Source of the DNA: a virus | Virus record (IMG/VR): IMGVR_UViG_3300045988_104412 | Direction: 5' to 3' (one strand) | Length of the DNA stretch: 64,000 bases | Part shown: one piece after another, positions 2 to 64,000 of the stretch | Layout: each line of letters opens with the position of its first letter | How positions within the stretch are numbered: position 1 is the first letter of the stretch | The notes under the pieces: generated by a model | What the model saw: the letters and a program-made list of their open reading frames with translations, nothing else | Databases searched by the model: none | Told to the model about the DNA's origin: nothing | Program-made: the position numbers and the translations under genes

Positions 2-2287
2 CGACGCTGGCAATGGCTGTATGGCTGCTCTCCCCGAAGCGTGCGCGACTATCTGCTGACGTACACCATGAATGCGGAAGAGAACTTCCAGTTCGACCAT
101 GACCTTCGCCTTCCACTCTACTCCCGATTGCGTGGAGCCAGGAACACGGAACCATTCGAGATCGAATATCTCCGTGACCCTCGAAGCGGAAAACCAAAGC
201 CACCTACCTGCAAGGTGTCGCCTACGCGATTGTGGCTCTTTATGACCGCTCACGGATATTATCGCATGATAGACCCCGAGAGCACCGACCTTGTCGGACA
301 GTATATCCACCTGAACAAATGCTTTGTGGAGTATATCGACGCAAAGAGTATCATCCAGGCAGCAAAGACAATGCTATTGGAATATATAGAACAGGCATGG
401 CGGCATAGCGACAACGAGCGACGTTTAATGTCCGACTGCGCTAATATGGTGGACAAGACCTTCACGGAGAAGTCTGCCGGAGGTTTGCAGAGCATGGTGA
501 TAAACTTTGCTGATGCCTTCAATGCCAAGACGGAGTATTTTTACTTCAACAATGTAGCATTGAAGATAACACCCGACAGCATCCGCACGGTGTCTTACGA
601 CGACATAAACTTCTTCATCCCCTCGCTTGCCAAGAAGCCGTATGACTTCACGATGCGAGTGTTCAAAACACCGTTCACCATCACCGAACGACAGGAATAC
701 CGCGACCGACTGGAAGCGATAGACAAGAAGGAGAAGATGCAGAATGAGGACGGGTCGCCAGTTTTCACCTACGACGAGATAAAGCAGATGCGTGGCGACC
801 TTATGGAATGGGCTCAGACATACCGTTGGGATGTCAACTGGCAAGGACAGCAAGAAAAAGACCTTTGGCCTATTCTGCGCATAGTGCGCGGATTCTCAAA
901 CACCCTTTGGGAGCGAGAAAGAGACGTGCAACGTAGCAAAGAGAAGCTTACTGATGACGAGCGAGCCGTAATAAACGCCCATTTCGCCAATATGCTTTCG
1001 GGCATAGGCAGGCTTTGTTATCGTTCATGGGAAGGGATGCAGAACGTCTGCCCTTATCTTCTTGAGGATAATATCGCCGACGAGAAACAAGCCTCTGGTG
1101 GTAGTGGTAAGTCGGTATTGGTAAACCTCGTGGTTGGTTCGGCTGTCAATGTGTTCTGTGTTGATATGAAAGACTTCCTTACCGTTGTCGATGCAAAGTT
1201 CTGTCTTTCCGACTTGCTCATATATCCCGGCAAATATCGGGTTGTACACTGGGAGGACAAGCAGAAGAACTTTCCGCTCAAATACTTCTACAACAAGATT
1301 ACCAAAGGTACGAAGGTTGAAAAGAAATTTGGCGACCCCGTTAGTCTGAAGATGGAAGACTCTCCGATGCACGTCATAACAAGCAATAGTCCGTTGAGCG
1401 ACGACGACCCATCTACTATAGGTCGTTTTCCTCTGGTTAGTTTCTCCGACCGCTTCGCTCGCGAGAATCCTCAAAAGCGACAGCCGGCGCGATCACCATC
1501 CGACATTATGAAGCGTTTTGATACCGACCCCGCCAAACTGACTGACACCGACCGCAACCAAGCCATCTACATCTGCGCCTTGGCAGTGCAGTTCTTGATG
1601 CGCTATCACACCTTTGCCATTGCACCGCAAGGCAATGTGCGTCGCCGTCAGATGGTGCAGAAGCTCACCGAGAGCATTGTCCGCTACTTCGAGTGGTTCT
1701 TCTCTCGCAACGAGGTTTACGGAGTGCCTATATGTACCGATGATATGTTCAACGAGTTCATGCGCGACTGGGCAGATGCCTCTGAGGGTAAGTCGAAGGA
1801 GTATAGTCGAGCCACCTTCAAGAAGAAGATATACGACTATTGCGAAAATATGTCGATAACGTGCAATCCTAAGCATCTCTTCGAGAACGAGAGTGACAAG
1901 CAGCGCAAGTGTTTCAAGCTGCAGGCTTGGGTTACGCAGGAATACTTCACTGGGCGCGAATGGGAGAACGACAATACCATCGAGCCGAAGTTTATCCGCT
2001 ATATGCAGACTTCCAAGCACGTCTTCTTCTTCTTCCGTCCTGGCAAGGATGCGATACCGAAGGACTACCGCGAGCTCAAGCGCATAGCAAAAGCCTTTGC
2101 CGAGCAGCCTGACCCTCTGCCTGACCGCGATGACGATGGTAACATCATCACGCTTACCGACGAGGAAAAAGAACGCTGGGAGAACAATAAGACACGCAAG
2201 CAGGGTAGGCGTATGGCGTCGCCTCCGGCAATTACTACCGCCGCAGCTGTTACTTCGGACGTAAAGGAGGAGGATCTGCCGTTCTGA
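2..2287 (+). CDS. P-loop helicase/primase-like replication protein (SF3 / D5-VirE-like), probably 5-prime truncated by the window edge
   Basis: The frame is open back to the window start (no stop before the listed GTG at 41). Walker A-like ASGGSGKSV is present. It sits first in the replication module. Acidic C-terminus ends in EEDLPF. Confidence 0.6.
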   Translation, partial: RRWQWLYGCSPRSVRDYLLTYTMNAEENFQFDHDLRLPLYSRLRGARNTEPFEIEYLRDPRSGKPKPPTCKVSPTRLWLFMTAHGYYRMIDPESTDLVGQYIHLNKCFVEYIDAKSIIQAAKTMLLEYIEQAWRHSDNERRLMSDCANMVDKTFTEKSAGGLQSMVINFADAFNAKTEYFYFNNVALKITPDSIRTVSYDDINFFIPSLAKKPYDFTMRVFKTPFTITERQEYRDRLEAIDKKEKMQNEDGSPVFTYDEIKQMRGDLMEWAQTYRWDVNWQGQQEKDLWPILRIVRGFSNTLWERERDVQRSKEKLTDDERAVINAHFANMLSGIGRLCYRSWEGMQNVCPYLLEDNIADEKQASGGSGKSVLVNLVVGSAVNVFCVDMKDFLTVVDAKFCLSDLLIYPGKYRVVHWEDKQKNFPLKYFYNKITKGTKVEKKFGDPVSLKMEDSPMHVITSNSPLSDDDPSTIGRFPLVSFSDRFARENPQKRQPARSPSDIMKRFDTDPAKLTDTDRNQAIYICALAVQFLMRYHTFAIAPQGNVRRRQMVQKLTESIVRYFEWFFSRNEVYGVPICTDDMFNEFMRDWADASEGKSKEYSRATFKKKIYDYCENMSITCNPKHLFENESDKQRKCFKLQAWVTQEYFTGREWENDNTIEPKFIRYMQTSKHVFFFFRPGKDAIPKDYRELKRIAKAFAEQPDPLPDRDDDGNIITLTDEEKERWENNKTRKQGRRMASPPAITTAAAVTSDVKEEDLPF

Positions 2288-3419: not shown

Positions 3420-3443
3420 TTCAAATTGCGCAATGCGCAACAA

Positions 3444-3471
3444 TTCAAAATTCAAAATTCAAAACTCAAAA
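3444..3471 (+). repeat. 4 x 7-bp tandem repeat (TTCAAAA x3, CTCAAAA) in the A-rich leader of the clamp gene
   Basis: Read directly: ttcaaaa ttcaaaa ttcaaaa ctcaaaa, immediately upstream of ATG 3474. Confidence 0.8.
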
Positions 3472-3473
3472 AT

Positions 3474-4664
3474 ATGAAACTTCAAGCCCAATCATCACGC
3501 GCTTTTCACGCAGCCCTTAACAAGTCGGCAAAGTGTATCGGCTCAAAAAATCCAATTGCCATTTTCGACAATGTGCTGCTGACCTGCAACGAAAGCGGTC
3601 TGTTCTTTCTTACGTCATCTACTGCAGAAGCACAGCTCACCATCCCGGCACCCCTTTCGTTGTGCGGTGGCAAGTTTGAAAAGCCGATAGTGCTGCCCAT
3701 CAAAATGCTCAGTTCGCTGTTAGGCACGCTGCCCGACTGCGTTGTTACTCTGGATGTAGAGGAGGGTGGCTCGTCGTTCACCGTAGAGTATTGCACCGGC
3801 AGTGGCGACAACGTTAAGTCGGGCAAGGCTAAAATGGCATATTTCTCGGGCGACGAATACCCCCAGATGTTGTTGCCCAAGAGTGAGGCATCGACAATCA
3901 TTTGTCTGCCTTGTCAGTTGTTTCATTCTGTTATAGATACTGCGGACAAGTTCGTTCAGATAGACGAGTATCGCCCCCAGCTTTCCAGCTTGTGCGTAGA
4001 CATTGCTGACGACCGCTCAGAGGTGGTCTTTGCGGCTACGAACGGACACACGCTTGCGAAGATAGTACACAGCAATGATCCGCAGAAGGGCGGTAGTGAT
4101 TTCTTCCGTAGTGGCGAGCCTCGCAAGACGCTTATCCTTCGCAACTACTTCCGTACGTTGTCTGCCTTTGACGGCTGCGAGGAGATCAGTATCGAGAACG
4201 ACGGAAACACCATTCGTTTTTCGTCGGGCGACATCGAACTTATCTGCAAGCACATGGAGGGCAAATACCCTAACTACAACGGCGTAATTCCGAAGTCCCA
4301 TCCTTACTTCGTCGTATTTGAAAAGAAGGAAATGATTGACATCCTGCGCCGTGTCAGTCTTTTCTCAAATAGCGCAAGCAATCTTGTCAAGGTAGAGAAG
4401 AACGGCATCTTCATCAACGTTTCTGCGAGTGATATGGATTTTGCTATGTCCGGCGAAGACCAGGTGCTCATATCTAACGCAGAGTGCCCCGACAATTTCC
4501 GTATCGGATTGAAGTCGTCGGCTTTTCAGACCTGCATCAACTCCATTCCTTCAGACACCATCCGTATGCAGTTGCACGACTCTATGCACGCCGTAGTGCT
4601 CACCGCCGACACACCTGCGCCTAAAGTGATGACGCTTGTGATGCCGATGGTGCTTGACGACTAA
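3474..4664 (+). CDS. dnaN: DNA polymerase III beta sliding clamp
   Basis: About 396 aa with three-domain length. The N-terminus has the IFDNVLL...LTSSTAEAQL pattern, and the KYPNYNGVIPK motif is typical of beta clamps. ATG 3474 is preferred over the listed TTG at 3426. Confidence 0.8.
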   Translation: MKLQAQSSRAFHAALNKSAKCIGSKNPIAIFDNVLLTCNESGLFFLTSSTAEAQLTIPAPLSLCGGKFEKPIVLPIKMLSSLLGTLPDCVVTLDVEEGGSSFTVEYCTGSGDNVKSGKAKMAYFSGDEYPQMLLPKSEASTIICLPCQLFHSVIDTADKFVQIDEYRPQLSSLCVDIADDRSEVVFAATNGHTLAKIVHSNDPQKGGSDFFRSGEPRKTLILRNYFRTLSAFDGCEEISIENDGNTIRFSSGDIELICKHMEGKYPNYNGVIPKSHPYFVVFEKKEMIDILRRVSLFSNSASNLVKVEKNGIFINVSASDMDFAMSGEDQVLISNAECPDNFRIGLKSSAFQTCINSIPSDTIRMQLHDSMHAVVLTADTPAPKVMTLVMPMVLDD

Positions 4665-12064: not shown

Positions 12065-13334
12065 TTAAAATTCGCCAAAATCCAGTTTCATCTGTTGAAA
12101 TTTCTCGGCATACCATTGTCTGGATGATTTGCCAGAAATCCACCAGTCGTAGATGTTCTCCGCTATTTCGTTTTCTTGCTCCTCTGTCAAGCGGTCAGAA
12201 GAGGAGCTGTCCGAAAACCCAATGCGGCGAGTCCACACACCGGTGTTCCTTCGGACAGGTCTTCCAGTTACAGACTGTCCGCATCCACTGTTTACAAATG
12301 CGGAACGTCGGCATTGCCGCTTCTCGTATTTTACCCCCCAGTCGGATTGTTTGTAGAATCGAGCTGGATCCAATGTTCCGGGTCGGGATGCTTGATGTAG
12401 CCGCCTGCGTCCTGAGCAATTCTCTGACGTTTCTGAGAGGCATCCAGTCCTTGTGGATGTTCCACCAGATGTATTCTTTTTTGAATACCCCCCCGTTTCG
12501 GATGGCCTTAATCGCCTTAATCCAGTTTCTCTTTACATGTGGATAGCGTTCGTTTTCTATCATCTTTTGCTTATGCGAACTCATTGGACAGCCGATGCAA
12601 CCTATGCGGTGCCATCCTTCGTCGTAGAGCGAGCAATGCGGAACTTTCACAACATCATTAAGAAATTCCCATACGTCTTGCTCGGTCCAATAGATAATGG
12701 GCGAAATCAGTAGACTCTCTTTGCCGTGGATGCAGCCTAACGTCTGCTCCTCGTCGGCATTGGTGATGTTCACTCCGTCCTCTCTTGACTTTCGCCTTAT
12801 GCGTTTAGCCTTCTGCTCTTGTCTATACTCTTCAAGACCATCGAGGTCGCCGCTAAACTTTCGATTGTTTATCTCCACCTCGTTGCGCTTTGCCCGGCGC
12901 GAACTCTCTGCCTTACGTATGCCGATAAGCGTAACCTTGCCAGCACCTGCCGTTTCCTTGTATTCAGCGCAGCACCAACGCACACGCATAGTTGGCAAAA
13001 TCTGTCTTTCTACGGCACTTTGAAAGATGGATTTACCAGGCTTGTTTAGTTCCACCTCGGGATAGTTTTTCTTCACGAAGCGTATCACTTCGGGCGGGTC
13101 AACGCTCGTAAGATTCATGTGACCTTGAAACCTTACCCCCGCTAACTATGCGATATGGTAGAGAGCCTGAGAATCTTTGCCGCCGCTAAACGCCAAAAAA
13201 TAACCTTGCTCGGCATCATAGTTGAGAGCAATCTTCTCCGCCTTTTGCAACAATTCCACCGAGTGAAGCATTTTCTTTCGCAATCGTGCCGAAGCACGGT
13301 TTAAGGCTTCGGCAAGCGTAATTTTGATATTCAT
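12065..13334 (-). CDS. PP-loop ATPase / PAPS-reductase-family protein, interrupted by an in-frame TAG; the 3-prime third is ambiguous across frames at G/C tracts
   Basis: The N-terminal piece has the PP-loop AFSGGKDS. TAG at 13146..13148 is in frame with the continuation LAGVRFQGHMNLTSVDPPEV...GIRKAESSRR. C7 (12488..12494) and C6 (12334..12339) lie where alternative frames are open. Total span is about 423 codons. Confidence 0.6.
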
Positions 13335-16689: not shown

Positions 16690-16700
16690 GAGGGTAGGGT

Positions 16701-17261
16701 ATGGCACGTTTTATCTCCCCCGTACAAAAACCGTTTGCTCCGCTCTCCCGCGTCGCTCCGTTGTATCTCGACCAAGCCTTGATGGATATTGAGGCGAACA
16801 TGCAAGTGCAGCGCATTTATCCCACTGAGGTGTATCGAGGCTACGAGGAGATTAACCAATACCGCAAGGAGCATGGCATGTGGTGGTCCACTGGCGAGGG
16901 AACTAAGTCGTTTGAGGGACATATTTATCAAGCCGACGACCAGAAGGGATTGCTTACGGTGGGTATTCGCTACAACGACTATTTGCGCTATGTGGATATT
17001 GGTGTGGGTCTGACTGGTGACATTCATATTCATGCAAGCGACGTGGATCGCACACGGTCGGCAAAGAACGCCAAGAGGTATATCCGCGGAAAATGGGACC
17101 GTAAGCAGGGTAAGTCGCACCGTCCTGCCATCATGCGTACCATTCGCCGACTGCGCGACCGCTACCGCAACTATCTTGCTGATTTCTACGGCTATCAGGG
17201 TGGCATCGACATTATTCATGCCTTGGAAGGAATGGGCGAACACGCTAAGTCTGATTTCTAA
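16701..17261 (+). CDS. hypothetical protein
   Basis: 186-aa ORF immediately upstream of the tape measure gene. Confidence 0.5.
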   Translation: MARFISPVQKPFAPLSRVAPLYLDQALMDIEANMQVQRIYPTEVYRGYEEINQYRKEHGMWWSTGEGTKSFEGHIYQADDQKGLLTVGIRYNDYLRYVDIGVGLTGDIHIHASDVDRTRSAKNAKRYIRGKWDRKQGKSHRPAIMRTIRRLRDRYRNYLADFYGYQGGIDIIHALEGMGEHAKSDF

Positions 17262-23200: not shown

Positions 23201-23486
23201 TCCACAACTGCTGAAAGCTCTCGTCAATTATGACCGCAACTATTCCGGTCGCCACGCCTACGACACTGGCAATATCTCCGAGACAAGCCCCACGATCGCC
23301 GCAGAGTCTTCCATAAGCGACGAAATGGTGTCTAACCAAGCCACTACCAATATCGCCCTCCTGCAAGCCGTAAACACGCTCCTGCAACGTCTGGAGCAAC
23401 CTATCGAGGCAAAGATAGATATGTATGGCCGTGGCAAGCTCTACGACAGCATGACAAAAGCTAATCAGTTTATGAAGAACAAATAG
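17286..23486 (+). CDS. tail tape measure protein (2066 aa)
   Basis: Very long, coiled-coil-rich protein. It has a TP901-type core-like segment (GSLTDIRKVSGLTMEQVKQLS...AYQGAKLGMG) and hydrophobic segments. No internal stops. Confidence 0.7.
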   Translation: MANLKTEVILSMNGKAAIQVLEALRDKARSVREEIDHLDKDAPDFKERKAGLESVYKTLQNYQTNIIKDTERLDHALKNLSTTSLQNLRKALGDGRRQLQKLSEDDLAQAEEVRKKMKQVGDEIRLIEGQYVKIAEGLKNVANQSDQWLDKAIKQQRDLVGSLQKSDAGYQQNLATLKQLEAEEDRRKGKMNVAEARQTVSDDNASASDLRRAKATLTEARDKTAIGKTGEIDSYNRDLQEIERRLEAVSGKTQKASMSWKQMKRVLAEPNKASGEDIKRTMEVIQQKIQQLPAGSKYVADLRRQYSMLEQTLKGTRMSQSALNDILSRSKQGKASLDELRRAYKQLEEEMNQVNTTSKEFADKQKSMKELKKNIDEVTGATNKQGGAWHTALKNLTAYVGLFSVFNHIKDLVTGAIKKNFEYSGSLTDIRKVSGLTMEQVKQLSTELAKIDTRTSVDGLAQLAYQGAKLGMGKYGVEGMAQFVRAADQINVAIGEEMGEEALPALSKMVEVMGLIPKMGIEKAMEATGSAMFKLSSTSTSTSNDIVEFSKRLTGVARTAGITTDQLLALGSASSSMMLMPEVASTAMGKFIVALQKNHNLIAKELGIPDETIKNLYASGHAMDAIVLVLEKMRDKGNMNTLGGIFKDLGSDGQRLVTAMVTMSKNVDILKDHLYESEEAFREATAVGKEYSMQQLSAIGILERANNLWEKAFVNPDGVDAVKGMAEWWYEMSATMTNSPLLKGTLQIALQMVLITLKAVATLLPVIIGYMASQGLYSGLRLLWQYLTALGVAVKSMFQYARALFTANAAQSTLNKTTKLNPWIAFASVIIGVAGAIYGYTQRAREAAEAAKEAERQANAWKSTLGQAAIETENLKDKLKNYKRMLSEANLSQKDRQGLISRFNRDFRSYINNLGIEIKNVKDLRDHYADLAQEAERATYYRMREQAKQQALPKLDNDVNTASNAVMENITKLGLDKLGVKFKDIYRWVKAGMSAKDITLKLAKMLPREKTGLADGFNWKIGKQGYIYRDTYDKDHKATPATDFQTQTELADMYRDNLWFVNAYKRKGKKLKQINKAFSNWVDENYQPTPPETPGTLDNNAKDKDAIAEEKRRENDQKRAWREELKQKQDQAKAIMDDVSNYYDRQINAKLAQAISLNMDKTEQEQFVLPLRQNKEIARSQVRLAVAGKPNKWEDAKKMMAADMVEQKDETGINLSKDLLDGILNNNIDNLRKLMEQLGKNLGLSMNSITAEIFAKATRSEQEILKMELKQMEARRKIVMEHDYTGIVQQNSYDNFNEMGYAAPTKEETTVTKKMVDGKEVLDTSAFDKRRKAIKDMYETARKELAQLYAIDVSTTDGKGVLMKILFGDDPDGMAARIKASLGESEESWKSFYLNLIQYSDNYAEAEKKKYDSAKKIVDFWWSSNKRNLAQQDKLRKMQNESNLFGKRTNLLSNLGLANLTADPEIELMKARMQAAEDYYAFVERNTKNKQLIDEAERARQEAELAYANQMATAMKSRLSQMKELVQPIEDFGAAVGQALAEMRYDAESANDAIKSALKSMLESWAKMALNDVNTQMWKAINDAGAKRGKKKAQPDIDAARANAKANYTDLNGIDWRNFGTESNPLWVRWAGDHYENKSGDAVYTKEDGTPLPNPNGSVPQSNEPPSAWKKRHPDGTIDDYNKEVKSLGGQVGTSMVGQTGASVAGAVTGSSSFGDAATGIAMSGADALLNAQIKKTSKSEKEREKQLKKEKKHQKDLTKETKKGLSDREKATGKGVKNITSTTEQGNKEQSKGTVVAQQTITNATEAGLNATLTAKQKNNDETLKSDANRTQGEVTFSIAGAMAKCFEFLGPIAGPIAAAVVMSTLMGLLQWALNSALGGGKKKNSTKGPNTKVVSGMLTYDSGNVQDLRPFVGNDGSLYWAAEDSNPHNGVSLLTRPTATSINGHPSLVAEKGPELVIGRETTQAMMMNNPQLLKALVNYDRNYSGRHAYDTGNISETSPTIAAESSISDEMVSNQATTNIALLQAVNTLLQRLEQPIEAKIDMYGRGKLYDSMTKANQFMKNK

Positions 23487-25462: not shown

Positions 25463-26431
25463 ATGATTAAAGAATTTAAAACTCGTACAGGAGCGATTTT
25501 TAGTGATACTAAGAATTGTCTTGAGTATTTGTATGTTGGCGACTATGGCAAGGAAGCCAACATCAAGGCAGACTTTCTTGGCTTGACCAAGGAGATTAAT
25601 GGTGTAACCCACAAGAAGGTTGACCTTGAGGATAAGATGGTCGTTACTATTTCTACTCAAAAAGGATGCCCAATGAAATGTAAGTTCTGCGATTGTCCTA
25701 AAGTCGGTTTCCACGGCAATGCCAATGTTAGTGACCTACGAGCAGAAGTAATGTCGGCTATCGTTCGTTCAGGGTGTCAGCATACAAAGCGCTTCAACCT
25801 TCACCTGGCTCGTATGGGTGAACCGTCTTTCAATTGGGATAACATCAAGATCTATTTGCTTTGTTATCTTAAGGATGATGTTAGTGTGTTCATGGATGCA
25901 GATGTTATTCATCCTGTATTTACGACCATGCTTCCGCGTACTTTGGGACGTAATACGCTTAAACGTATTCTCGGCGAGTTTTGTCAAGTTAAGAATTGCG
26001 AGTTTAGAGGTGAAGCCGGATTGCAGTTGTCTATAAACTCTACAGATGAAGAGCAACGTAATGATTTGTTCCGCGGGCTATCTTTGTCTTTGCAGGAAAT
26101 TTCAGAGATTTGTCAGGACTTGCCCATGCCGGTTGGCAGAAAATATACGCTAAACTTTCCCGTTACCAGGAATACGATATTGGACCCTGTTGTCTTGGAT
26201 AAACTTTTTGATAAGGAAAAATTCATTGTGAAGATAACCCCTATTCACGAGACGAAAGAGGCTATAAGCAATGGCATCCAGACAGAGGAGGGATATTACA
26301 CATACGACGTCTATAAACAGTTTGAGAAACCGCTTGTCAAAGCAGGTTGGGATGTGATCGTTTTTGTTCCTTCAGTGGAAGAAGACGAGGACAGAATAAC
26401 TTGTGGCAACGCCATTTTGAGTGAACATTAA
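25463..26431 (+). CDS. radical SAM domain protein
   Basis: CxxxCxxC in QKGCPMKCKFCDCP, followed by LARMGEPSFNWDN (SAM-binding-like). Confidence 0.7.
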   Translation: MIKEFKTRTGAIFSDTKNCLEYLYVGDYGKEANIKADFLGLTKEINGVTHKKVDLEDKMVVTISTQKGCPMKCKFCDCPKVGFHGNANVSDLRAEVMSAIVRSGCQHTKRFNLHLARMGEPSFNWDNIKIYLLCYLKDDVSVFMDADVIHPVFTTMLPRTLGRNTLKRILGEFCQVKNCEFRGEAGLQLSINSTDEEQRNDLFRGLSLSLQEISEICQDLPMPVGRKYTLNFPVTRNTILDPVVLDKLFDKEKFIVKITPIHETKEAISNGIQTEEGYYTYDVYKQFEKPLVKAGWDVIVFVPSVEEDEDRITCGNAILSEH

Positions 26432-26441
26432 GAGTAATAAT

Positions 26442-26939
26442 ATGAAACTGATAACGATTACTGGCCCGAGTGGTGCAGGAAAAGATACAGTTGCTCGGAT
26501 GCTGTCCGATTTGGGCGATTATAAAGTGATATGTTCTTATACCACACGTCCGAAGCGTGAAGGCGAGATTGACGGCGTGGAGCATCACTTTGTAGAGAAG
26601 TGCGATGTGCCGCATGACAATATGCTGGCTTATACGCAATATGGCGGTTATGAATATTGGACCACCGTAGAGCAGGTGGGCGATAAGGTTATTTATGTTA
26701 TCGACGAAGATGGACTGAAGTCGCTTTGCGAGAAGTTTCCTGATATAGAACTGTTCAAAATTTGCGTGTCGGCAAAGGAACGCACCCGGCTTCGCCGAGG
26801 TGTTACCCCTGAACGCATGGCACGCGACAAGCGGCGCAAACGTCTACCTTTGTCATTCTACGATGCTGTGATCTTTAACAACGATTCGCCTGGTGATCTG
26901 CGTGACGAAGTGTTGCGCGTAAGATACATGATTCAATAA
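26442..26939 (+). CDS. guanylate-kinase-like nucleoside monophosphate kinase
   Basis: P-loop ITITGPSGAGKDT and the Gmk-type motif TTRPKREGEIDGVEHHFV. ATG 26442 is preferred over the listed GTG 26421. Confidence 0.7.
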   Translation: MKLITITGPSGAGKDTVARMLSDLGDYKVICSYTTRPKREGEIDGVEHHFVEKCDVPHDNMLAYTQYGGYEYWTTVEQVGDKVIYVIDEDGLKSLCEKFPDIELFKICVSAKERTRLRRGVTPERMARDKRRKRLPLSFYDAVIFNNDSPGDLRDEVLRVRYMIQ

Positions 26940-26999: not shown

Positions 27000-27896
27000 A
27001 TGAAATTGATAAGCAGTTCAGTGGAATGGTGGCAGCAGCAGAATCTGTCGCAGCACATCGCACGAGTAGGCAGGGTGTGTTACAAGTCAAAGGGTAAGCA
27101 GCCCGACGAGAATATGTCGGCAGAGGAAGCGGAAGCCTTCATTCAGAAGCGTGACGAAGAACGCTGCAAGGGCTTCTGGGAAAGCGGACACCGTTCGATG
27201 TACCGACATGGCACAAGATACTTCTTTCTGCCCAACGAGAAAGGATTTCCAAACTACGTCTGGGCATACCTAAACGCTTCTCCCTATATCGACTATGCCA
27301 CGAAGGAACACAAGGTTTGGATTAGTGCTAATCTGCAGGTCTTGCTTGAGAACGGCGATATGTTTGAGTCATTAAAGCAATACTCTGTAACCGAAGACGA
27401 GTTTATCGAGAAGGCAATGAAGTATAAATGCGAGTCGGCTTTTGCCATTTTACGTATGACATTTGCTGTCACTACGCAGATAAGCACGTCGCGTGAGCTG
27501 AATCGCAAGTCGCCCAACAGCATTGCTGAGCAGAGCACGCGCTATTGTAACCTTGAAAAGAAAGGTGGCGTACAGATAGCGCGTCCACATTGGTATCTTT
27601 ACGGCACACGTCTGCAGTGCATGGTATATAGCTTTGTATGCCGAGTTTGTGAGTGGGGATATAACCGACTTCTAAAGCTGGGCTTAAAGCCGGAAGATGC
27701 ACGTGGTGTATTGCCTCTTGATACCTACACGGTGGCGGTGTATACATACACCATCGCCGAGTGGAAAGAGATTATAGACCTTCGCTATCATGGCAAAACC
27801 GGCAAGCCACATCCTAATGCGCATTTTGTAGCGGAGCGCATACGCAACATTATCCTGCGGCGTATGCGTGAGTATTTACCTGAGTTTGAGATTTAA
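27000..27896 (+). CDS. thyX: flavin-dependent thymidylate synthase (ThyX)-like protein, divergent signature
   Basis: LNRKSPNSIAEQSTRY aligns with the ThyX signature (L)xRHRxxSxxxQSxRY, but the second Arg is replaced by Ser. The downstream DARGVLPLDTYT...EWKEIIDLR segment is ThyX-like. Confidence 0.6.
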   Translation: MKLISSSVEWWQQQNLSQHIARVGRVCYKSKGKQPDENMSAEEAEAFIQKRDEERCKGFWESGHRSMYRHGTRYFFLPNEKGFPNYVWAYLNASPYIDYATKEHKVWISANLQVLLENGDMFESLKQYSVTEDEFIEKAMKYKCESAFAILRMTFAVTTQISTSRELNRKSPNSIAEQSTRYCNLEKKGGVQIARPHWYLYGTRLQCMVYSFVCRVCEWGYNRLLKLGLKPEDARGVLPLDTYTVAVYTYTIAEWKEIIDLRYHGKTGKPHPNAHFVAERIRNIILRRMREYLPEFEI

Positions 27897-30367: not shown

Positions 30368-30441
30368 AGCGGAGTGGTAGCAGCTGGCAGCTCACTTGGC
30401 TCATAACCAAGAGGTCGATGGTTCGAGTCCATCCTCCGCAA
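30368..30441 (+). tRNA. tRNA with anticodon CAT (Met, or Ile2 if lysidine-modified)
   Basis: Acceptor GCGGAG/CTCCGC. Anticodon stem CTTGG/CCAAG with loop CTCATAA (CAT at 30402..30404). T-arm GATGG-TTCGAGT-CCATC. The D-arm is atypical and position 1:72 would be A:A. Confidence 0.75.
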
Positions 30442-30505
30442 CTTTTAACAACCAGGTAAAAAGGTTGTATTCAGGATAACACAACACAAAACACAGATTT
30501 TACTA

Positions 30506-34571: not shown

Positions 34572-35501
34572 ATGGAACTAAGACATTTACGTTCATTTGT
34601 ATTCGTTGCCGAAACGAAGTCGTTTAGCACGGCTGCAACACGCTGCTGTGTAACCCAGTCGGCGGTAAGTCAGCATATACGTGCCCTGGAGGACGAATTA
34701 GGTTGCAAGCTGCTTATTCGAACCTCTCACGATATTATGCTCACGGAAAGCGGGACGACGCTATTGCCTCGCGCCAAAGAAATATTGAAGCAGACCGAGG
34801 ACTGTAAAGAACAAATCAACGCCCTCAACAACTGTATGACGGGCGAATTGCGTATCGGTGTTGGCTCGTTTATCGCGCCGTATATCCGTATGGCGGCTTT
34901 GATTTTCATGGATCGATACCCTAATGTGCGCATCAACGCCGACTTTACCAAAGCGCACCTTCTCAACCAATCGTTAAGGGCACACATGTTAGACCTTGCA
35001 TTCACTATGAATATGGCTTATAGTCACGAAGGGATAGAGTCGAGACCTTGTATACCCTTCAACGTCTACGCCATCATGCGTGACACCCATCCACTTGCCG
35101 CTCTCCCGAAAGTTTCGTACGAAGACCTTAAGAAGCATCCCATCATCATGCCCGACGTTGGCGAGCGTGTATTTGAAACCTGCCAGCAGTACATTCAGCG
35201 CGATTTGCATAAGCTCAATATCAAATGTATTATCAGTGATCCCGACGAAGCTCTTGCCTCGGTTGAAGAGACCAAATACGTGACATTTATGCCCAAACTC
35301 TACTTGCGCAACCACCCCACCCTTGTAGCACGCCCCATTGTTGGACTTGAGCAGCAGTTGATGAGCAACGCGCATTGGATGCAAGATGTGCCCAAGAAGC
35401 GAGCCGCCCAACTCTTTCTGGATATAATCAGAGATGAAGTTGTGCCATATATTGCTGTAGCGGAAGATTCGCGAGGGCAGTTCGTACCTCCACCTCGATA
35501 A
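34572..35501 (+). CDS. LysR-family transcriptional regulator
   Basis: N-terminal wHTH MELRHLRSFVFVAETKSFSTAA...TQSAVSQHIRALEDELGCKLL, followed by a substrate-binding-domain-length C-terminus (309 aa). Confidence 0.85.
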   Translation: MELRHLRSFVFVAETKSFSTAATRCCVTQSAVSQHIRALEDELGCKLLIRTSHDIMLTESGTTLLPRAKEILKQTEDCKEQINALNNCMTGELRIGVGSFIAPYIRMAALIFMDRYPNVRINADFTKAHLLNQSLRAHMLDLAFTMNMAYSHEGIESRPCIPFNVYAIMRDTHPLAALPKVSYEDLKKHPIIMPDVGERVFETCQQYIQRDLHKLNIKCIISDPDEALASVEETKYVTFMPKLYLRNHPTLVARPIVGLEQQLMSNAHWMQDVPKKRAAQLFLDIIRDEVVPYIAVAEDSRGQFVPPPR

Positions 35502-39778: not shown

Positions 39779-40366
39779 ATGAAGAAGATTATGTTCAATG
39801 ACAAGTACGGTCTCACACAGGCCGTACTCGAAGGCAGAAAAACTCAGACAAGAAGAATAGCCGATACCGCGGGGAGATTGAGGGATATTACAGTTAGGCA
39901 GGCTTTAGAAGAAGTAAACAAAGGCAGAGCATGTCTGTTTGACGAGGGAAGACCTCTCGCTCTATCCGCTTACAAACTCGGCGAAACTATAGCCATTGCG
40001 CAGAAGTACGCAGATCTGGCGTATGACGGTGAATTTTTCCGTCTTTTAGGAAAGGTCATATTCGAGAAAGGATGCTACAACAAGATGTTTGTGAAGGCAG
40101 ACTTTATGCCGCACCGCATCCGCATTACTCACATTCGTGTCGAGCGTCTGCAAGACATCAGCGAGGAAGATTGCATAGCGGAAGGCGTTTGGCGTGACGA
40201 CAACGTAGAACTTGAAGGTACGACGTATTGGTACCACGGTCTTGCCAATTCCTCGTTCCGCACTCCGCAGCAAGCCTACGCCTCCCTTATCGACCGCATC
40301 TCCGGCAAAGGCACTTGGGAGAGTAACCCTTATGTGTTCGTTTATGATTTTGAACTAATAGATTAG
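39779..40366 (+). CDS. ASCH domain protein
   Basis: N-terminal MFNDKYGLTQAVLEGRKTQTRRI is the typical ASCH opening (GxKTxTxR). Ends in TAG. Confidence 0.55.
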   Translation: MKKIMFNDKYGLTQAVLEGRKTQTRRIADTAGRLRDITVRQALEEVNKGRACLFDEGRPLALSAYKLGETIAIAQKYADLAYDGEFFRLLGKVIFEKGCYNKMFVKADFMPHRIRITHIRVERLQDISEEDCIAEGVWRDDNVELEGTTYWYHGLANSSFRTPQQAYASLIDRISGKGTWESNPYVFVYDFELID

Positions 40367-47277: not shown

Positions 47278-48453
47278 ATGAGTGACTTAAAAATTTTTGC
47301 TAAGACCATCGAGCCTGAAGCCAAGGAGCAAGTAAGGCAGATGGCAGAGAGCGCAGCCTACCGCGACTGCAAGATTCGCATTATGCCCGACTGTCATGCG
47401 GGTAAGGGATGCACAATAGGTACGGTAATTCAGACTGCCGGCAAGGTTGTACCTAATACCGTAGGCGTGGATATAGGCTGTGGTATGTTGGTATTCAAGT
47501 TCGCAGAGAAGGATATAAACCTTTCGCTTCTCGACCGAATCATCAATGAGTCGGTGCCGAGCGGATTTGACGTTCACGAAAAGTCCAAGCTAAAAGATTG
47601 GAGTCCACTTACGTCATATCTTTTGCTCGATTTGCACGAAAGGACACAAGGTTGCTTCGACCCCGACTATATCGGACGCTCGCTTGGCACCCTCGGTGGC
47701 GGCAATCACTTCATCGAGCTTGACGAGGACGAGCAGGGTTATAAGTATCTTGTGATACATTCGGGCAGTCGCAATCTCGGAGTTAAGGTGTGCAACTTTT
47801 TCGAACACTTAGCCAAGAAGAATGTGAATCGAAACGAGGAGCGCCAGCGCATCATCGAAGACTTTAAGAAGTACGGCTTAGAGAGGGAGATTAACAATAC
47901 GTTGCGTCGTTTTGGCACCGTGTCTCCCGATCTCGCCTATCTTGAGGGAGAAGACCTCAATGCCTATAATTTCGCAGCGAACGTCTGTCAGAATTTTGCC
48001 GACGACAACAGATGGAATATAGCAATACCTATAATCCATGGGCTTCAATTATCGTTCGTGGATTTCTTTACCACCAGGCATAACTATTTCGACATACACT
48101 CAGGCATCATCAGAAAAGGAGCTGTGAGTGCCGAAAATGGCGAACAGCTTATCATTCCTCTGAACATGCGCGACGGTTCGTTGATATGTCGCGGCAAGGG
48201 CAACGAAGACTGGCTTCAGTCGGCTCCGCACGGTGCAGGCAGACTGATGTCGCGCTCGGCTGCCAAGAAGCAGCTCAGCATGGAGGAATACCGCCAGCAG
48301 ATGCACGACATTTACTCCACATCGGTATGCGAGTCCACCATCGACGAATCACCAATGGCGTATAAGTCGGCAGTGGAGATTGAAGATCTGATAGGCGACA
48401 CCGTGACCGTGGTAAAGCGCATCAAGCCGATATACAACTTTAAGGCGAAGTAA
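47278..48453 (+). CDS. rtcB: RNA ligase RtcB
   Basis: IMPDCHAGKGCTIG, VGVDIGCGM, GGGNHFIELD and SAPHGAGR, the full set of RtcB metal- and GMP-binding motifs. Confidence 0.9.
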   Translation: MSDLKIFAKTIEPEAKEQVRQMAESAAYRDCKIRIMPDCHAGKGCTIGTVIQTAGKVVPNTVGVDIGCGMLVFKFAEKDINLSLLDRIINESVPSGFDVHEKSKLKDWSPLTSYLLLDLHERTQGCFDPDYIGRSLGTLGGGNHFIELDEDEQGYKYLVIHSGSRNLGVKVCNFFEHLAKKNVNRNEERQRIIEDFKKYGLEREINNTLRRFGTVSPDLAYLEGEDLNAYNFAANVCQNFADDNRWNIAIPIIHGLQLSFVDFFTTRHNYFDIHSGIIRKGAVSAENGEQLIIPLNMRDGSLICRGKGNEDWLQSAPHGAGRLMSRSAAKKQLSMEEYRQQMHDIYSTSVCESTIDESPMAYKSAVEIEDLIGDTVTVVKRIKPIYNFKAK

Positions 48454-58525: not shown

Positions 58526-61513
58526 ATGACACAAGCGAGAACAAAAGACTATTGGATTTCGCCTTCGGCATTGCATATCGAGCTGAATGCCCTTGGCAAT
58601 CCTGACTATATCCAGGCATCGTGTATGAGCGGTGCTCAGATACTTGTGTACGTCAAGGACATTATCGGCTTCGATGCTGGACACAACTACCGACGCTGGC
58701 CCTTGCAGGCAGCCCCAACGGTATTCAATACCCACACTGAAAAATACGTCTATGCCGCCATCCCTCGCGACATGACGCTCGCTGCTTCGGCATGGATAGT
58801 ATTCCCGTCTGAAAAAATAGACATCTACGGCAAGAACGAAAAAGAAGAGCAGATAGGCGACGAGAAGTACTATTACGTCTTTCTGCAAGGCATCATCACC
58901 TCGTCGGGCGATAACGGCACAGTGCAGCGCGATTGGAAAGAAGGCGGCAGAATCGTATATGGCTATTTGTCCTCGGACGAAGCAATCAGTGCCATTCCCT
59001 ACGAAAGCGAGTGGTATAATTATTCTTCGGCAGACAATATCGTGACCTTCCTCAAGGACATTACGATGAAGGCTGGCACTAAATTCCGCCAACTTTTCGC
59101 GAAGACTCTCACTATTGTGTCCGGAGGGAAAATAGCCTTTGAGGACCAAGGCGAGGTGAATGGAGTAGCCACAACGGACACGCAGCTTGAGTCTACCGAC
59201 AAGATAGTAACTCCGAAGTTTCTCGACGATAATGCGCTGTCAAAAGTAAAGCAGGATGCTGCGCAAGAGATCATTCGTTTCATAAAAGGATTGACTTTGG
59301 GCGAGAATACTGGAGGTAATAACTTCGGCATCTCCTCTGACGGCATCGCCACCCTCAAAGAGGTTGTGTCGGCGGCGTTCCGTTCGGGTGCGCTCGGTTC
59401 GGGCTTCAAGCTCGGCAATTATTCCGACAGCGAGGATAGCTACTTAGAGGTAGACCACCTCCTTGTGCGCAAGGCAGCGGAGTTCGTGAAGCTCGTAATT
59501 AGAGAGCTGCAAAGCGTAGGTGGTGAGGTAGTCCTGTCACCTGCGTCGATGAAGATCAGTAAGGTGGACTTCCTGAGAAAGGGCACGCTGCTGCCCGAAT
59601 ATGGCACAACCCCTCTGCGATTCGACGTCTATCGTTGTTCGTTCTTAACGAAGCGAGGTGACGAGGAGATAACGAACCCGTTTGTCGTCAACGACCTTGT
59701 GCGCTGCCAGACGTTCAATATCAAGGAGGGCACGACGGCGAACGCAAAGAACAAATACTACTGGCGCAGAGTGACGGCGGTCGGCACGGACTACATCGAC
59801 ATCCTTGCCTTGTCGGGAGGTAACTACGGCGACTCGCAGCCCGAAGTAGGCGACGAGCTTGTTCAGATGGGCAATACAACCGATGTGGCGCGCCAGTCGG
59901 TGCTATACCTCTCGGCTTACGGCGCAGACTCGCCGTCAATCAAGCTGTACAAGGGCGTGAACGACTATACACTCGACGGCAAGGAGATATTCGTGGTGTC
60001 ACGCGGCGAGATTTATGCGCTTGCGTCAATGTTCAAACTCAAAGTGAAGGATGGCGACACAACAAAGGAAATGACACTTGCAGAGATTGTGGCAAACGTT
60101 GACGGACTGACTTCCACGGTAGCGGCAAACAAGCAGGAGACGGACGGACAGATAGGCAAGATAAACACTACTCTAACGCAGAACGCAGAGAGCATATCTT
60201 CGCTTGCACAGAAGCAGACGGACACGGAGAACAAGATGACAAAGATGGAGCAAACGACCGACAAAATCTCCCTACAGGTCGAAACGACCACGAATCTAAA
60301 GAATAGCATCGTAGGCTCTGCGCTGCGTCCGTGGGATGAAATCACAAAGATAGCGGCGGCTCACTCGCAAAAGGTAGAGATAACAAGCGGTGGCGGCGTC
60401 GGCGGCTCAAACTACGCAACGTTCAGTGCGTCGGGCGCTACAGCGAACACATACACAGGTCTGTACTTTAAGGATGTGCGTGTATCGGCTGGCAAGACGT
60501 ACGTATTCAGCGTATGGGCGAAGTTAGTCAGCCTGTTTGATAATGGCGCTTACTACTCTATCAAGCGCTTTGACGGCGGTACGGAAGGTGCTGTTGTCAA
60601 GTCGGGCAATATCTATCTGAGTATAGGTGGCTGGAAGCTCTTTACTGCGACGTTTACCGTGCCCGACGGCTGCACAAAGCTGTTGCTTGAACTTGCCGTG
60701 CGCAGAAATGGTGCTATCGACGTGTGCCGTCCGATGATAATGGAGGGAACGGAGTACGGCGGCTGGAGTTTATCGCCCTACGACAAGACGGAAGCTGGCA
60801 AACTGGAGTCGGGACTGAAAAGAGCAGGCATCGACCTCGAAGACGATACCATCACGGCGACGGCTAACAAGTTCATGGTCAAGAACAACAGCGGCGAAGT
60901 GACGGCGAGCGTGAACGAGGACGGCTTGCTGGAGGTGGGCGCAGGTCTCTTCTCTGGACTGATACGTAAGAAGAAGACTATCATTACCCCCGACAAGTTG
61001 GAAGGCTACACAGAAGAAAACTCGATTAATGGATATATCCGACTAAACTTTGTAAAGACGGGTAGCTTTGTTGAGCTTTCGGGCGACATCGGCAAAAAGA
61101 CAGGAGGTAACTACCCGACAATAATTCTGCCATTTCACAATCCGAACGCAAGCAATGCCAGCCTTGGTGTGACAAGCGAAGAAGCGGCGACGTGTCTCGG
61201 GCAGACATTCATTGTAAGAAACAATACAAGTCCGGCGATAACAATCAATATCATTGGTTACACGTCGCTCGTCGGAGGCAGCGACGCAAATCATCCCTAC
61301 TGGCTTGGAAGCGGATGGATGGCAGTCCTTACCTGCGAATTTGTATATGTCTCAAACGCCAATACGTATGCTATTGTATGGAATGGATATAACGTACCAT
61401 TTTCAGCTCCAATAGCGCACAGCGACGAAGGAGAAGAAGCGGTTGCGGACGAAGGAGGAGAATCTACAGCCGACGGCCCGACAACAACAGAAGAAGAACA
61501 ACCAAAAGAATAA
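58526..61513 (+). CDS. tail fibre / receptor-binding protein with CBM-like domain
   Basis: 995 aa. It has a coiled segment and a carbohydrate-binding-module-like stretch (YTGLYFKDVRVSAGKTYVFSVWAK...MIMEGTEYGGWSLSPYD). The C-terminal tail is acidic. Confidence 0.5.
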   Translation: MTQARTKDYWISPSALHIELNALGNPDYIQASCMSGAQILVYVKDIIGFDAGHNYRRWPLQAAPTVFNTHTEKYVYAAIPRDMTLAASAWIVFPSEKIDIYGKNEKEEQIGDEKYYYVFLQGIITSSGDNGTVQRDWKEGGRIVYGYLSSDEAISAIPYESEWYNYSSADNIVTFLKDITMKAGTKFRQLFAKTLTIVSGGKIAFEDQGEVNGVATTDTQLESTDKIVTPKFLDDNALSKVKQDAAQEIIRFIKGLTLGENTGGNNFGISSDGIATLKEVVSAAFRSGALGSGFKLGNYSDSEDSYLEVDHLLVRKAAEFVKLVIRELQSVGGEVVLSPASMKISKVDFLRKGTLLPEYGTTPLRFDVYRCSFLTKRGDEEITNPFVVNDLVRCQTFNIKEGTTANAKNKYYWRRVTAVGTDYIDILALSGGNYGDSQPEVGDELVQMGNTTDVARQSVLYLSAYGADSPSIKLYKGVNDYTLDGKEIFVVSRGEIYALASMFKLKVKDGDTTKEMTLAEIVANVDGLTSTVAANKQETDGQIGKINTTLTQNAESISSLAQKQTDTENKMTKMEQTTDKISLQVETTTNLKNSIVGSALRPWDEITKIAAAHSQKVEITSGGGVGGSNYATFSASGATANTYTGLYFKDVRVSAGKTYVFSVWAKLVSLFDNGAYYSIKRFDGGTEGAVVKSGNIYLSIGGWKLFTATFTVPDGCTKLLLELAVRRNGAIDVCRPMIMEGTEYGGWSLSPYDKTEAGKLESGLKRAGIDLEDDTITATANKFMVKNNSGEVTASVNEDGLLEVGAGLFSGLIRKKKTIITPDKLEGYTEENSINGYIRLNFVKTGSFVELSGDIGKKTGGNYPTIILPFHNPNASNASLGVTSEEAATCLGQTFIVRNNTSPAITINIIGYTSLVGGSDANHPYWLGSGWMAVLTCEFVYVSNANTYAIVWNGYNVPFSAPIAHSDEGEEAVADEGGESTADGPTTTEEEQPKE

Positions 61514-61516
61514 GAT

Positions 61517-61966
61517 ATGAAGAAAATAGTTAGAGGTAACGACTTTACCCTGCGCATACCAGTATGCAAGATAGTGAATGGCGAGCAGGTGGCTTTTCCG
61601 CTGCCTGCCTGCACGGACATCGTTGTAAACATCGTGAACCAGTATCGGCGTGTGAACCTCGCCTACAGCATCGACACAGCGGAGGACAACATCATCAATG
61701 CGCGTGTCGAGGGCGACGCGGTATCAGTGGGCATATACGCCCTCGAAGTGCGCGGTAAGATTTTCGGCAACGACTGGCGCAGCAAGGAATACGAGCAGTT
61801 CGCCATCGTGGACAACAACGCCTCGGGCGACACGGCGTTTGACGGCGAACTTATCGAGGGCGAGGACTCCGTGGAGATGGACACGGCACTCGTATTTCTG
61901 CCCCCGACGGCTGAGCTGACGCAGCTAATCAACGACGCTAATACGGCTGTAGAAACGGCAAAGTAG
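61517..61966 (+). CDS. tail fibre N-terminal (anchor) module, terminated by TAG that is in frame with the following 2-kb open frame
   Basis: 149-aa ORF with stop TAG at 61964..61966. Confidence 0.6.
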   Translation: MKKIVRGNDFTLRIPVCKIVNGEQVAFPLPACTDIVVNIVNQYRRVNLAYSIDTAEDNIINARVEGDAVSVGIYALEVRGKIFGNDWRSKEYEQFAIVDNNASGDTAFDGELIEGEDSVEMDTALVFLPPTAELTQLINDANTAVETAK

Positions 61967-64000
61967 ACAGACGCAACGCTCAAAGCCAACGAGGGCGAGC
62001 GCGTTTCTGCGGAACAGCAACGAGTGTCGGCAGAAACCTCACGTGTATCAGAGGAAATCAAGCGCAGCGAGAACGAGGAGACTCGTCAGGCAGCAGAGGC
62101 GGAACGTGTGAGCAACGAAGACGCCCGAAAAGCGGCGGAAGCGCAGCGCATCAACGCTGAGAGCGAGCGTGCAGAAGCTGAAAAGACACGCACGGCAAAC
62201 GAAGCCGCACGCGTCGCAGCAGAGAAGCAGAGAACAGCTACCTTCACTGAGCTTTCTGCGAACGTAGACGCAGCTGTCAGCAAGGCGAACACCGCGGCAG
62301 GAGCGGCAAATACGATAACCGAAAAGGCGAACGCAGCAGAGGACAAGCGTGCAGAGGCGTTCACGGTTCTCAACGGTAACATGAATACGGCAATATCGGA
62401 GCTAAACAAGGCAGTGGCAAAAGCCGAAGACACAATAGAGCAGACTACCACTGCGCTCAATGCCGCGAAGAACGTAGACATAGACATAGCCGACACAACG
62501 CTTGCCGTCACACGTCCTTCGGGTGAGCGAAAGGAGTTTGACCTCATGCAGCTGAAAGGCGACAAGGGCGACGCATTCACCTACGCCGACTTTACGCCCG
62601 AGGAGATAAAGGAGCTGCAAAAGCCTGCTACGGAGGCTGCCACAAACGCCGACAAAAAGGCTGAGGAGGCAAGCCGTGTGAACGCCGTGCTGACTGGCGA
62701 GAACGTGCTTGAGGTGACAAACCGCGAGGGTGTGAAGACGGCACTGCAACTGGCAAGCTACGCCGAGGTGGGAGATGTAGTGAGCGAGGTGAAGCACCTG
62801 TCGGAAACAATGGGTGCATACACGGGCAGAGCGGACATCATACTGAAGGCGGTAGAGACGAACAAGGCTATATCTTCAGCCGGCGCAAAGATAAACAAGA
62901 GCGGCTGGGCTATAGCGGAGTTTACTGCGGAGAAAGGCAACGTATATCTGTTTAAGCCTAACGTAATAGACGATAGCGTGTGCATCTTTGCCGAGTACAT
63001 ACAGAGCGTAGAGACACGCGGAATAGATTACACATATACATACAACACCGACGGCACAACGGCAACAGCAACGGCAACGTATCTGGGTGCGACACACACA
63101 TATACATACACCTATGCCGAAGACAAGAGCTGCGTCATTACCGATGAGAAAGGAGCTGCTGTGGACGCCCTGCCGATGGTGTATGAAACAAAGGTCGGAA
63201 CATACTCGCCGCTCGTTAGTCTTAACGCAGATGCAGAGCTGCCGAAGGACGGCTACTGTCGATACATGAGTCACTTTAAGGGCAACTCCGCCATTAAGGT
63301 AGTAGTCAGCTACAAAGTGGGCGTGGCTGACTTGACAATGAAGGTGACGAGAGACGGTGTTTTGGCGAGCGTTTCCACGCAGCTGGGCAACCTGTCGCAG
63401 AAAGAGGATGAGACACGCAGGAAGATAGACGAACTGCATGGTAATTACATAGAATTAAAGTGGAATGCAGATAGTTTTTGCTATGTGGATTGGAAATATA
63501 TAGAGGTGAAGGCTTTTAAGAAATATCGCTTCAAGCCAATATATGCACTTGAAACCTGTCGTCAATTTGACAGCAGCCACTACCCCAATGGCAACCACTT
63601 GGTCTATGCTGACGTATCGCACTTTGACGCAACGACGTTTGCTGTCAGCACCTACCCAATCGAGCATAAAAAGCGTATAGATTCCGTATTCTTTGGTGCA
63701 AAGATAGAAAAGCTGGACTGTCGCGGCATGAATGTCAGTGGTTTGACGGACATAAATCAGGTGTTCAAAAACTGCGCGGAACTTACGGAATTGGATATTA
63801 GCGGATGGGACACTTCGGAATGCCGAACGTTTACTGATTTTAACAAGAATTCCTATACGAGAGGTTTATTCGGCGGCTGCTCGAAGTTGCGTAAGATATA
63901 TGGTTTGTCAGGACTTGACACACGCAACGTGACGGATATGGGCTCCTTGTTCAGAGGCTGTTCCGCTCTAACGAGCATAGACGTAAGCAAGTGGGACACA
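61967..64000 (+). CDS. tail fibre shaft and BspA-type leucine-rich-repeat head. It continues the 61517 frame after TAG and runs past the window end.
   Basis: 678 codons checked by hand with no stop. No ATG until codon 139. Coiled-coil repeats (ERVSAEQQRVSAETSRVSEE...) are followed by LRR units (F.NCAELTELDISGWDTS..., LFRGCSALTSIDVSKWDT). Absent from the ORF track, presumably because no stop lies in the window. Confidence 0.7.

Follow-up and report, generated by a model that had tools for sequence, protein, structure and literature searches.

A probable loss-of-function amber allele of a modular tail-fibre gene in a standard-code gut phage

RESULTS

A long reading frame interrupted by a single amber codon

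The window, that is, the whole stretch of DNA analyzed here, comprises 64,000 nucleotides of the viral record IMGVR_UViG_3300045988_104412 and ends inside a putative tail-fibre gene whose reading frame is interrupted by one in-frame TAG (Table 1). An open reading frame (ORF) on the + strand, 61517..61966, encodes a product of 149 amino acids (aa; MKKIVRGNDF...AVETAK) with the C-terminal end ...INDANTAVETAK, and is terminated by TAG at 61964-61966. Translation of 61517-64000 showed that after this TAG the frame reads TDATLKANEGER... and stays free of stops for 678 codons, up to the end of the window, a length expected by chance with P ~6e-12 at the stop-codon frequency of the window. On a near-identical contig from ENA, k119_64029 (90,805 bp), all 826 codons 3′ of the TAG are open and the frame ends at a TAA, codon 977, located 447 nt beyond the window, so that the full frame amounts to 976 codons. 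Only three in-frame start codons were found 3′ of the TAG: GTG at 62024 (19 codons downstream), GTG at 62108 (47 codons) and ATG at 62381 (138 codons). An earlier sequence-only reading of this DNA had described the 149-aa ORF closed by TAG, the 678 open codons behind it, and the distances to the nearest GTG and the nearest ATG, all of which were reproduced by retranslation.

Gene callers split the locus into the 149-aa product and a product of 807 aa begun at GTG 62024. Re-initiation after nonsense codons occurs in bacteria, and this general knowledge, together with the two gene calls, would accord with separate translation of the downstream part from a start such as GTG 62024, giving two functional proteins. 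Such an arrangement is nevertheless very unlikely, as the in-frame starts are few, GTG 62024 is preceded by G+C-rich coding sequence unlike the A/T-rich leaders of this phage, and the resulting product would be devoid of the N-terminal domain that homologues always have fused to the fibre. In line with this, a check of the homologues for a gene boundary at the position of the TAG found it in none of them.

Both parts of the frame belong to one modular fibre gene

A protein search with the sequence fused across the TAG yielded more than 3,000 matches, the best of which were single proteins of 786-887 aa covering both flanks of the TAG. Homologues inspected individually all read ...ETAKQTDATLKANE... 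across the junction, and in the alignment the column of the TAG was occupied by Gln in 115 of 119 homologues. When the 149-aa part was compared with 1.84 billion cluster representatives, 232 relatives were found, in proteins of up to 1330 aa, and the domain formed the extreme N-terminus in every one of them. About 60 relatives from IMG/VR contained the fibre gene as an uninterrupted ORF of 650-1209 codons. The downstream part matched DUF285, a BspA-like repeat (PF03382, E=5.5e-10). Three propositions of the sequence-only reading, namely that the two pieces are one gene with the 149-aa domain at its N-terminus, that the TAG stands at a Gln position (occupied by CAG both in the intact allele described below and in its closest fused counterpart among the relatives), and that the downstream part contains BspA-type repeats, were thereby upheld.

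Distal heads varied among relatives, with DUF285, CarboxypepD_reg-like and other modules represented, while the N-terminal adaptor was conserved, which points to a modular fibre with swappable distal parts. An AlphaFold2 (AF2) model of the 149-aa domain, of low confidence (predicted local distance difference test score, pLDDT, 54), placed strands at residues 10-82 and a helix at 132-148. A helix predicted at the end of a beta-rich domain would place the TAG at the start of the coiled-coil shaft, residues 132-148 tentatively being the first helix of that shaft. Distant homologues of the adaptor domain (P0259, P0265 and P0277, 30-36% identity) are merely 152-164 aa long, and these short sequences may represent stand-alone versions of the domain in other phages.

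The name 'tail fibre' is suggested by the position and architecture of the gene. It lies after the tape-measure gene, beside genes for a CBM-containing protein of 995 aa and a DUF4376 / phrog_1807 tail-fibre protein, and its own PHROGs matches were weak, to 'virion structural protein'. Among GenBank phages, megablast with 60500-64000 gave no match, and tblastn gave only remote ones (DUF285 repeats in Listeria/Butyrivibrio phages and coiled coils in Clostridium phages).

Ancestral codon and spread of the amber allele

The closest fused relative (L018) has GCGAAGCAGACAGAC, with CAG, where the window has GCAAAGTAGACAGAC. The downstream product shares a 90%-identity cluster with an intact allele of 976 aa (P0124); the gene for P0124, 10001-12931 of locus L284 (ENA ERZ27229701), is collinear with the window frame and has CAG at codon 150. 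This was the one occurrence found of an intact version of exactly this fibre. The exact 149-aa product was called on 14 contigs, and the codon was TAG in all 10 of them that were read, with 0-1 base differences from the window over 495-2484 bases from the gene start. The TAG contigs were produced from different runs by MEGAHIT (k119, k127) and SPAdes (NODE contigs) or belong to scaffolded assemblies, their sources being SRR2191466, SRR2188750 and SRR2191136 (PRJNA217052), BRIT16-1_SAMN02333985, and ERZ26607xx and ERZ26610xx. The JGI collection also contains the split gene product (P0121). A sequencing or assembly error masking a true CAG might be suspected from a single-base difference from relatives; with the identical TAG recurring over the 14 contigs, different assemblers and different runs, and with the JGI product split as well, its probability is negligible. 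Together, these comparisons indicate that the TAG is a real single-base change, CAG→TAG, and that CAG is the ancestral codon.

In codons 1-149, the amber allele is separated from the intact one by 18 silent and 5 replacement changes; in codons 151-976 the numbers are 0 silent and 5 replacement. All 18 silent differences (61517-61966 compared with L284 10001-10450) fall within codons 11-124, and their confinement to this segment, with none in the 826 downstream codons, suggests a recombination breakpoint near the junction of adaptor and shaft. The L284 fibre gene is carried on a phage backbone different from that of the window, and the occurrence of the same shaft-and-head cassette on both suggests that it has been exchanged between phages. 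One of the five downstream replacements, D437G, could be assigned to a lineage, the amber one, the site being Asp in 12 of 12 alignable homologues. Divergence by replacements only would fit relaxed constraint on the downstream part, although the changes are few.

A second amber codon in a PAPS-reductase-like gene

Intragenic stops were sought by searching the window with tblastn, the queries being coding-like ORFs of the relatives' loci, filtered by codon usage against conserved non-coding shadow frames. Only two were found, one in the fibre gene and one in a PAPS-reductase-like gene on the opposite strand; the remaining stop matches, of low count, corresponded to gene starts or non-coding frames. 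The PF01507 match of the PAPS-reductase-like gene (E=1.2e-18, residues 46-250) extends across its TAG. At the equivalent position, CAG occurs in 34 IMG/VR loci and CAA in another 13 (mostly at 85-100% protein identity), and more distant relatives have Lys or Arg. The amber allele was present in 12 contigs from several runs.

This gene is also affected by a frameshift in the sister assembly. A run of seven G (G7), found in the window and in L286, is G8 in k119_64029, where the C-terminal part of the gene is shifted out of frame to give a 262-aa product; this was the sole difference between the window and k119_64029 in the stretches compared. The G7→G8 frameshift suggests, in addition to the amber codons, relaxed constraint. 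Frameshifts of the PAPS-reductase gene in a G-run immediately after the Gln codon were likewise observed in L052, L053, L061 and L062, at about position 3190 in each (…AQLAGGKVSRSHESYER and then a stop), and may be due to homopolymer slippage.

Other in-frame stop junctions of the window, TAG at 7532, 40364, 41641, 49511 and 16695 and TAA at 3417 and 36206, were rejected as ordinary gene boundaries. At these junctions either a start codon follows after no more than 1-2 codons or the extension has a non-coding appearance, and none of them is spanned by a relative's coding ORF. TAG 16695-16697 precedes the ATG of gene 16701-17261 by two codons. At least 14 diverged relatives share this TAG, and a few have CAG instead; the codon was considered as an intragenic stop but was read as a gene boundary within a conserved leader.

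TAG behaves as a terminator in this genome

The sequence-only reading had suggested that the fibre TAG is decoded, either by suppression or reassignment or by programmed readthrough generating a short and a long isoform. The alignment of the TAG with Gln agrees with decoding, but the results that follow make genome-wide reassignment of TAG to Gln (code 15) and evolved programmed readthrough highly improbable. With TAG as sense (code 15), coding density was 88.9%, compared with 89.5% under code 11, so reassignment brought no gain. No TAG was found inside the tape-measure gene (2066 aa) or the genes for the 946-aa and 995-aa tail proteins, and, with one amber codon in the fibre and the other in the PAPS-reductase-like gene outside the tail module, the late-gene enrichment pattern of recoded phages is not seen.

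The window, the stretches of the near-identical contig that were read, and 374 fetched loci (5.0 Mb, mostly relatives) were all found to lack a tRNA with anticodon CUA. The 5.2 kb downstream (L001) and 7.7 kb upstream (L002) of the window on the near-identical contig held no tRNA at all. The remainder of the circle, positions 76908-90805 of the k119_64029 record (~13.9 kb), was covered via relatives, among which L099 is 95-99% identical to L002 where they overlap; no tRNA(CUA) was found in them. No release-factor Pfam domain occurred among the genes listed for positions 1-~42,200 and 52,000 onward of the window, the 7.7 kb upstream and the 5.2 kb downstream (~42.2-52 kb being unlisted).

TAG terminates the tape-measure gene and at least six other genes, and relatives use TAG, TAA or TGA at the same positions. 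For the genes ending at 40366 and 49513, stop usage across relatives resembles that of the tape-measure gene (Table 1). With TAG read as sense, late genes would gain 16-190 codons or become fused to the next gene. As for programmed readthrough, folding of 61955-62080 revealed no stable RNA structure 3′ of the fibre TAG (z=0.10 against shuffles), and a stop at this position was absent from every homologue examined; an unconserved stop with no downstream structure makes an evolved readthrough signal unlikely. Decoding of TAG as pyrrolysine was set aside, the aligned residue being Gln, and to our knowledge pyl genes are not expected in Bacteroidota. Among the defining features of recoded phages that were examined, the alignment of TAG with Gln is the only one that appears to hold, all others failing (features taken from bioRxiv 10.1101/2021.08.26.457843).

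Gene disruption is common among relatives

The background of nonsense alleles was assessed by all-against-all tblastn of coding ORFs from loci L019-L281. About 24 well-supported intragenic nonsense alleles, counted by eye and possibly including consensus errors, were found in 4.3 Mb of relatives (TAG 11, TAA 9, TGA 4), that is, ~1 per 180 kb of assembled sequence. By replaced residue, they comprised Gln→TAG (6-7), Gln→TAA (5), Trp→TAG (3), Trp→TGA (3), Tyr→stop (3), Glu→TAA (2) and Gly→TGA (1). Most arose by C→T at a Gln codon or by G→A at a Trp codon, and the spectrum appears to be an ordinary, transition-dominated one. Some genomes bear several such alleles, two or three each (L264/L265; L223, including two GAA→TAA transversions). 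A further case is CAA→TAA at codon 165 of a 1222-aa gene in L003 (6790-6792; ARTA20-1_SAMN17006445 scaffold_67); this gene crosses the left edge of the window, where it appears as a 748-aa ORF, 41..2287, and the near-identical contig keeps Gln at codon 165.

Frameshifts also affect the fibre gene itself, in L324, L330, P0126-P0128 and P0132. Combined with the frameshifts of the PAPS-reductase gene described above, these cases indicate that disruptions of both genes recur through lesions beyond rescue by a suppressor tRNA, and, with TAA and TGA alleles also present among the relatives, disrupted genes can be accounted for without a suppressor.

The phage and its probable host

The window belongs to a tailed gut phage with a genome of ~90 kb. 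Across the window, Shine-Dalgarno motifs were found at 5 of 45 gene starts, and the leaders are A/T-rich, often with ...TATAGAG.. or ...AAAACA.... A/T-rich leaders lacking Shine-Dalgarno motifs are typical of Bacteroidota hosts, and the near-absence of such motifs here suggests a host of this phylum. Cultured relatives of the head protease were found only in phages of Flavobacterium and Cellulophaga. The host is probably a member of the Bacteroidota. Accessory genes are included in Table 1.

Table 1. Features of the 64,000-nt window discussed in the text
Feature	Position	Strand	Basis
Truncated 5′ part of the fibre gene, conserved N-terminal domain, 149 aa	61517..61966	+	Translation, homologue search, AF2 model
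In-frame amber TAG; both the closest fused relative and the intact allele have CAG (Gln) here	61964..61966	+	Alignment
Remaining fibre frame: coiled-coil shaft, middle domain, DUF285/BspA-like repeats	61967..64000, on to TAA	+	Translation, Pfam
PAPS-reductase-like gene (PF01507) with the second in-frame TAG of the window	12195..13334	-	Pfam match, relatives
Second amber codon, located 8 codons past the PP-loop motif SGGKDS	13146..13148 (13148..13146)	-	IMG/VR relatives
G7 homopolymer inside the PAPS-reductase gene; G8 in k119_64029	12487..12493	-	Comparison of assemblies
TAG, true stop of the tape-measure gene; relatives TAG 54, TAA 3, TGA 2	23484..23486	+	Codon comparison
tRNA-Met, anticodon CAT, sole tRNA of the window; no suppressor	30368..30442	+	tRNA scan
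DNA polymerase III beta clamp	3426-4664
Guanylate-kinase-like protein	26421-26939
ThyX (Thy1)	27000-27896
LysR-type regulator, unusual in a phage	34572-35501
RtcB RNA ligase	47278-48453

DISCUSSION

The explanation that we favour, at a probability of roughly 0.68, is that the interrupted gene is a loss-of-function amber allele (CAG→TAG) of a dispensable fibre in a phage that uses the standard code. A change at codon 150 of the 976-codon gene for this receptor-binding fibre would halt translation to leave a 149-aa N-terminal stub, with loss of the shaft and the DUF285 head. The phage has other large distal-tail proteins (946 and 995 aa), and the fibre would be dispensable; its apparent dispensability would allow the amber allele to be tolerated and to circulate. 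The second CAG→TAG change, in the PAPS-reductase-like accessory gene of the same genome, would be tolerated likewise. That no readthrough takes place at the TAG, and that loss of the fibre is tolerated, we infer from the sequence comparisons.

Several observations weigh against this explanation. Both nonsense codons of the genome are amber and both replace Gln, as a Gln-inserting suppressor would tolerate, and drawing two Gln→TAG changes from the background (~7/24 events) has a chance of ~0.07-0.1. In addition, the double-amber strain is common. Contigs with the fibre allele number 14 and those with the PAPS-reductase allele 12, and amber contigs span at least 8 runs of PRJNA217052 (SRR2191152, SRR2249355, SRR2189030 and SRR2188770 being among the runs that carry the strain, besides the three named above) plus other assemblies, as against a single find of the intact allele; such success is not obviously expected of a lineage with a crippled fibre. 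Finally, the 0 silent and 5 replacement differences downstream of the TAG are not statistically separable from positive selection on the receptor-binding head.

A rival explanation is that the TAG is read, partly or fully, as Gln by a suppressor tRNA supplied in trans, with production of full-length fibre continuing. Such a tRNA might come from the host, as a supE-like tRNA-Gln(CUA), or from a TAG-recoded phage resident in the same cell, e.g. a crAss-like one, and both CAG→TAG changes could then be effectively silent or merely lower expression. We regard this as unlikely, even though the two intragenic stops are both TAG in place of CAG, the strain carrying them is widespread over runs and outnumbers the intact allele in databases, and the 826 downstream codons remain fully open. 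It also has a precedent of a kind, since TAG→Gln recoded Bacteroidota phages are documented in human guts, where a change of code among close relatives has been reported (bioRxiv 10.1101/2021.08.26.457843; PMC9523058). However, no suppressor tRNA was found in this phage family (374 loci, 5.0 Mb), and the conserved use of TAG to terminate the tape-measure and other late genes would expose these to the 16-190-codon extensions or fusions noted above. The family background of TAA and TGA nonsense alleles and of frameshifts in the same genes speaks against suppression too, and both the replacement-only divergence downstream of the TAG and the additional PAPS-reductase frameshift have the appearance of decay. 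Somewhat less probable still is that the strain depends on, or is moving towards, decoding of TAG as Gln, with a suppressor provided by the host or a co-resident element and CAG→TAG changes tolerated gene by gene.

The persistence of the allele might also be explained by the amber genome being defective and kept either by co-infecting wild-type relatives, which would supply fibre and PAPS reductase in trans to a complemented 'cheater', or by passive carriage in a host lineage (as a carrier state or by pseudolysogeny). Termination would be true in this case as well, the difference lying in the reason for persistence, and the explanation seems doubtful. Relatives with an intact fibre do exist in the same cohort, L018 in another BRIT16-1 sample and L284 in ERZ27229701, an accession close to ERZ27229691, from which an amber contig comes, and nonsense alleles are common in the family (~1 per 180 kb). 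Against it, no integrase or other lysogeny module was seen among the genes listed for positions 1-~42,200 and 52,000 onward of the window and for its 7.7- and 5.2-kb flanks, and the short amber contigs have ~2x coverage according to their names, so that frequent co-infection seems unlikely. Moreover, co-occurring relatives bear different fibre heads, and complementation by them would alter specificity.

As a loss-of-function allele, the amber fibre gene resembles well-known cases. Laboratory lambda PaPa reportedly carries a frameshift in stf, as compared with Ur-lambda, and amber mutants of phage late genes are classical. Common features are the truncation of a distal fibre gene by one lesion, an otherwise intact virion module, an intact allele in close relatives and a retained N-terminal attachment part; with the classical amber mutants the present allele shares the same CAG→TAG transition. 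By contrast to those laboratory stocks, the present allele comes from many samples of wild gut metagenomes. Tolerance of the loss is here a matter of inference, and the genome has a second amber codon in a gene unrelated to the fibre. Programmed stop-codon readthrough, as in the Qβ A1 protein and retroviral gag-pol, resembles the present case in that a stop stands between a short N-terminal product and a long extension in the same frame. It differs in that the fibre stop is unconserved and has no stimulatory structure, and in that the upstream product is a fragment of an otherwise contiguous architecture.

The code-15 gut phages (crAss-like, Lak and others; bioRxiv 10.1101/2021.08.26.457843; PMC9523058) share with this one a gut habitat, a probable Bacteroidota host and TAG at Gln positions, with one late structural gene affected. 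Unlike them, the present phage has 2 in-frame TAGs in 64 kb and shows no drop of coding density under code 11; it keeps TAG as a terminator of late genes, its relatives have CAG at the fibre site and CAG or CAA at the PAPS-reductase site, and neither a suppressor tRNA nor, among the genes listed for positions 1-~42,200 and 52,000 onward of the window and for its flanks, release-factor genes were found.

If suppression in trans were true, this strain would provide a natural and tractable instance of genetic-code change at its earliest stage. Decoding of TAG as Gln by a phage with no suppressor of its own would offer a snapshot of the very first step of recoding in a standard-code family, and the order of events would be reversed relative to the proposal in the literature, in which the phage acquires the suppressor tRNA first. 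On the explanation favoured here, the locus is a caution that a lone in-frame TAG, even where Gln is expected, is insufficient to call recoding in a gut phage of the Bacteroidota type, about one nonsense allele per 180 kb being the normal background in this phage family. It also presents a modular fibre, with a 149-aa adaptor and swappable heads, that is repeatedly knocked out in the wild, which suggests that it is dispensable; such repeated fibre loss bears on the variation of host range and receptor use in natural phage populations.

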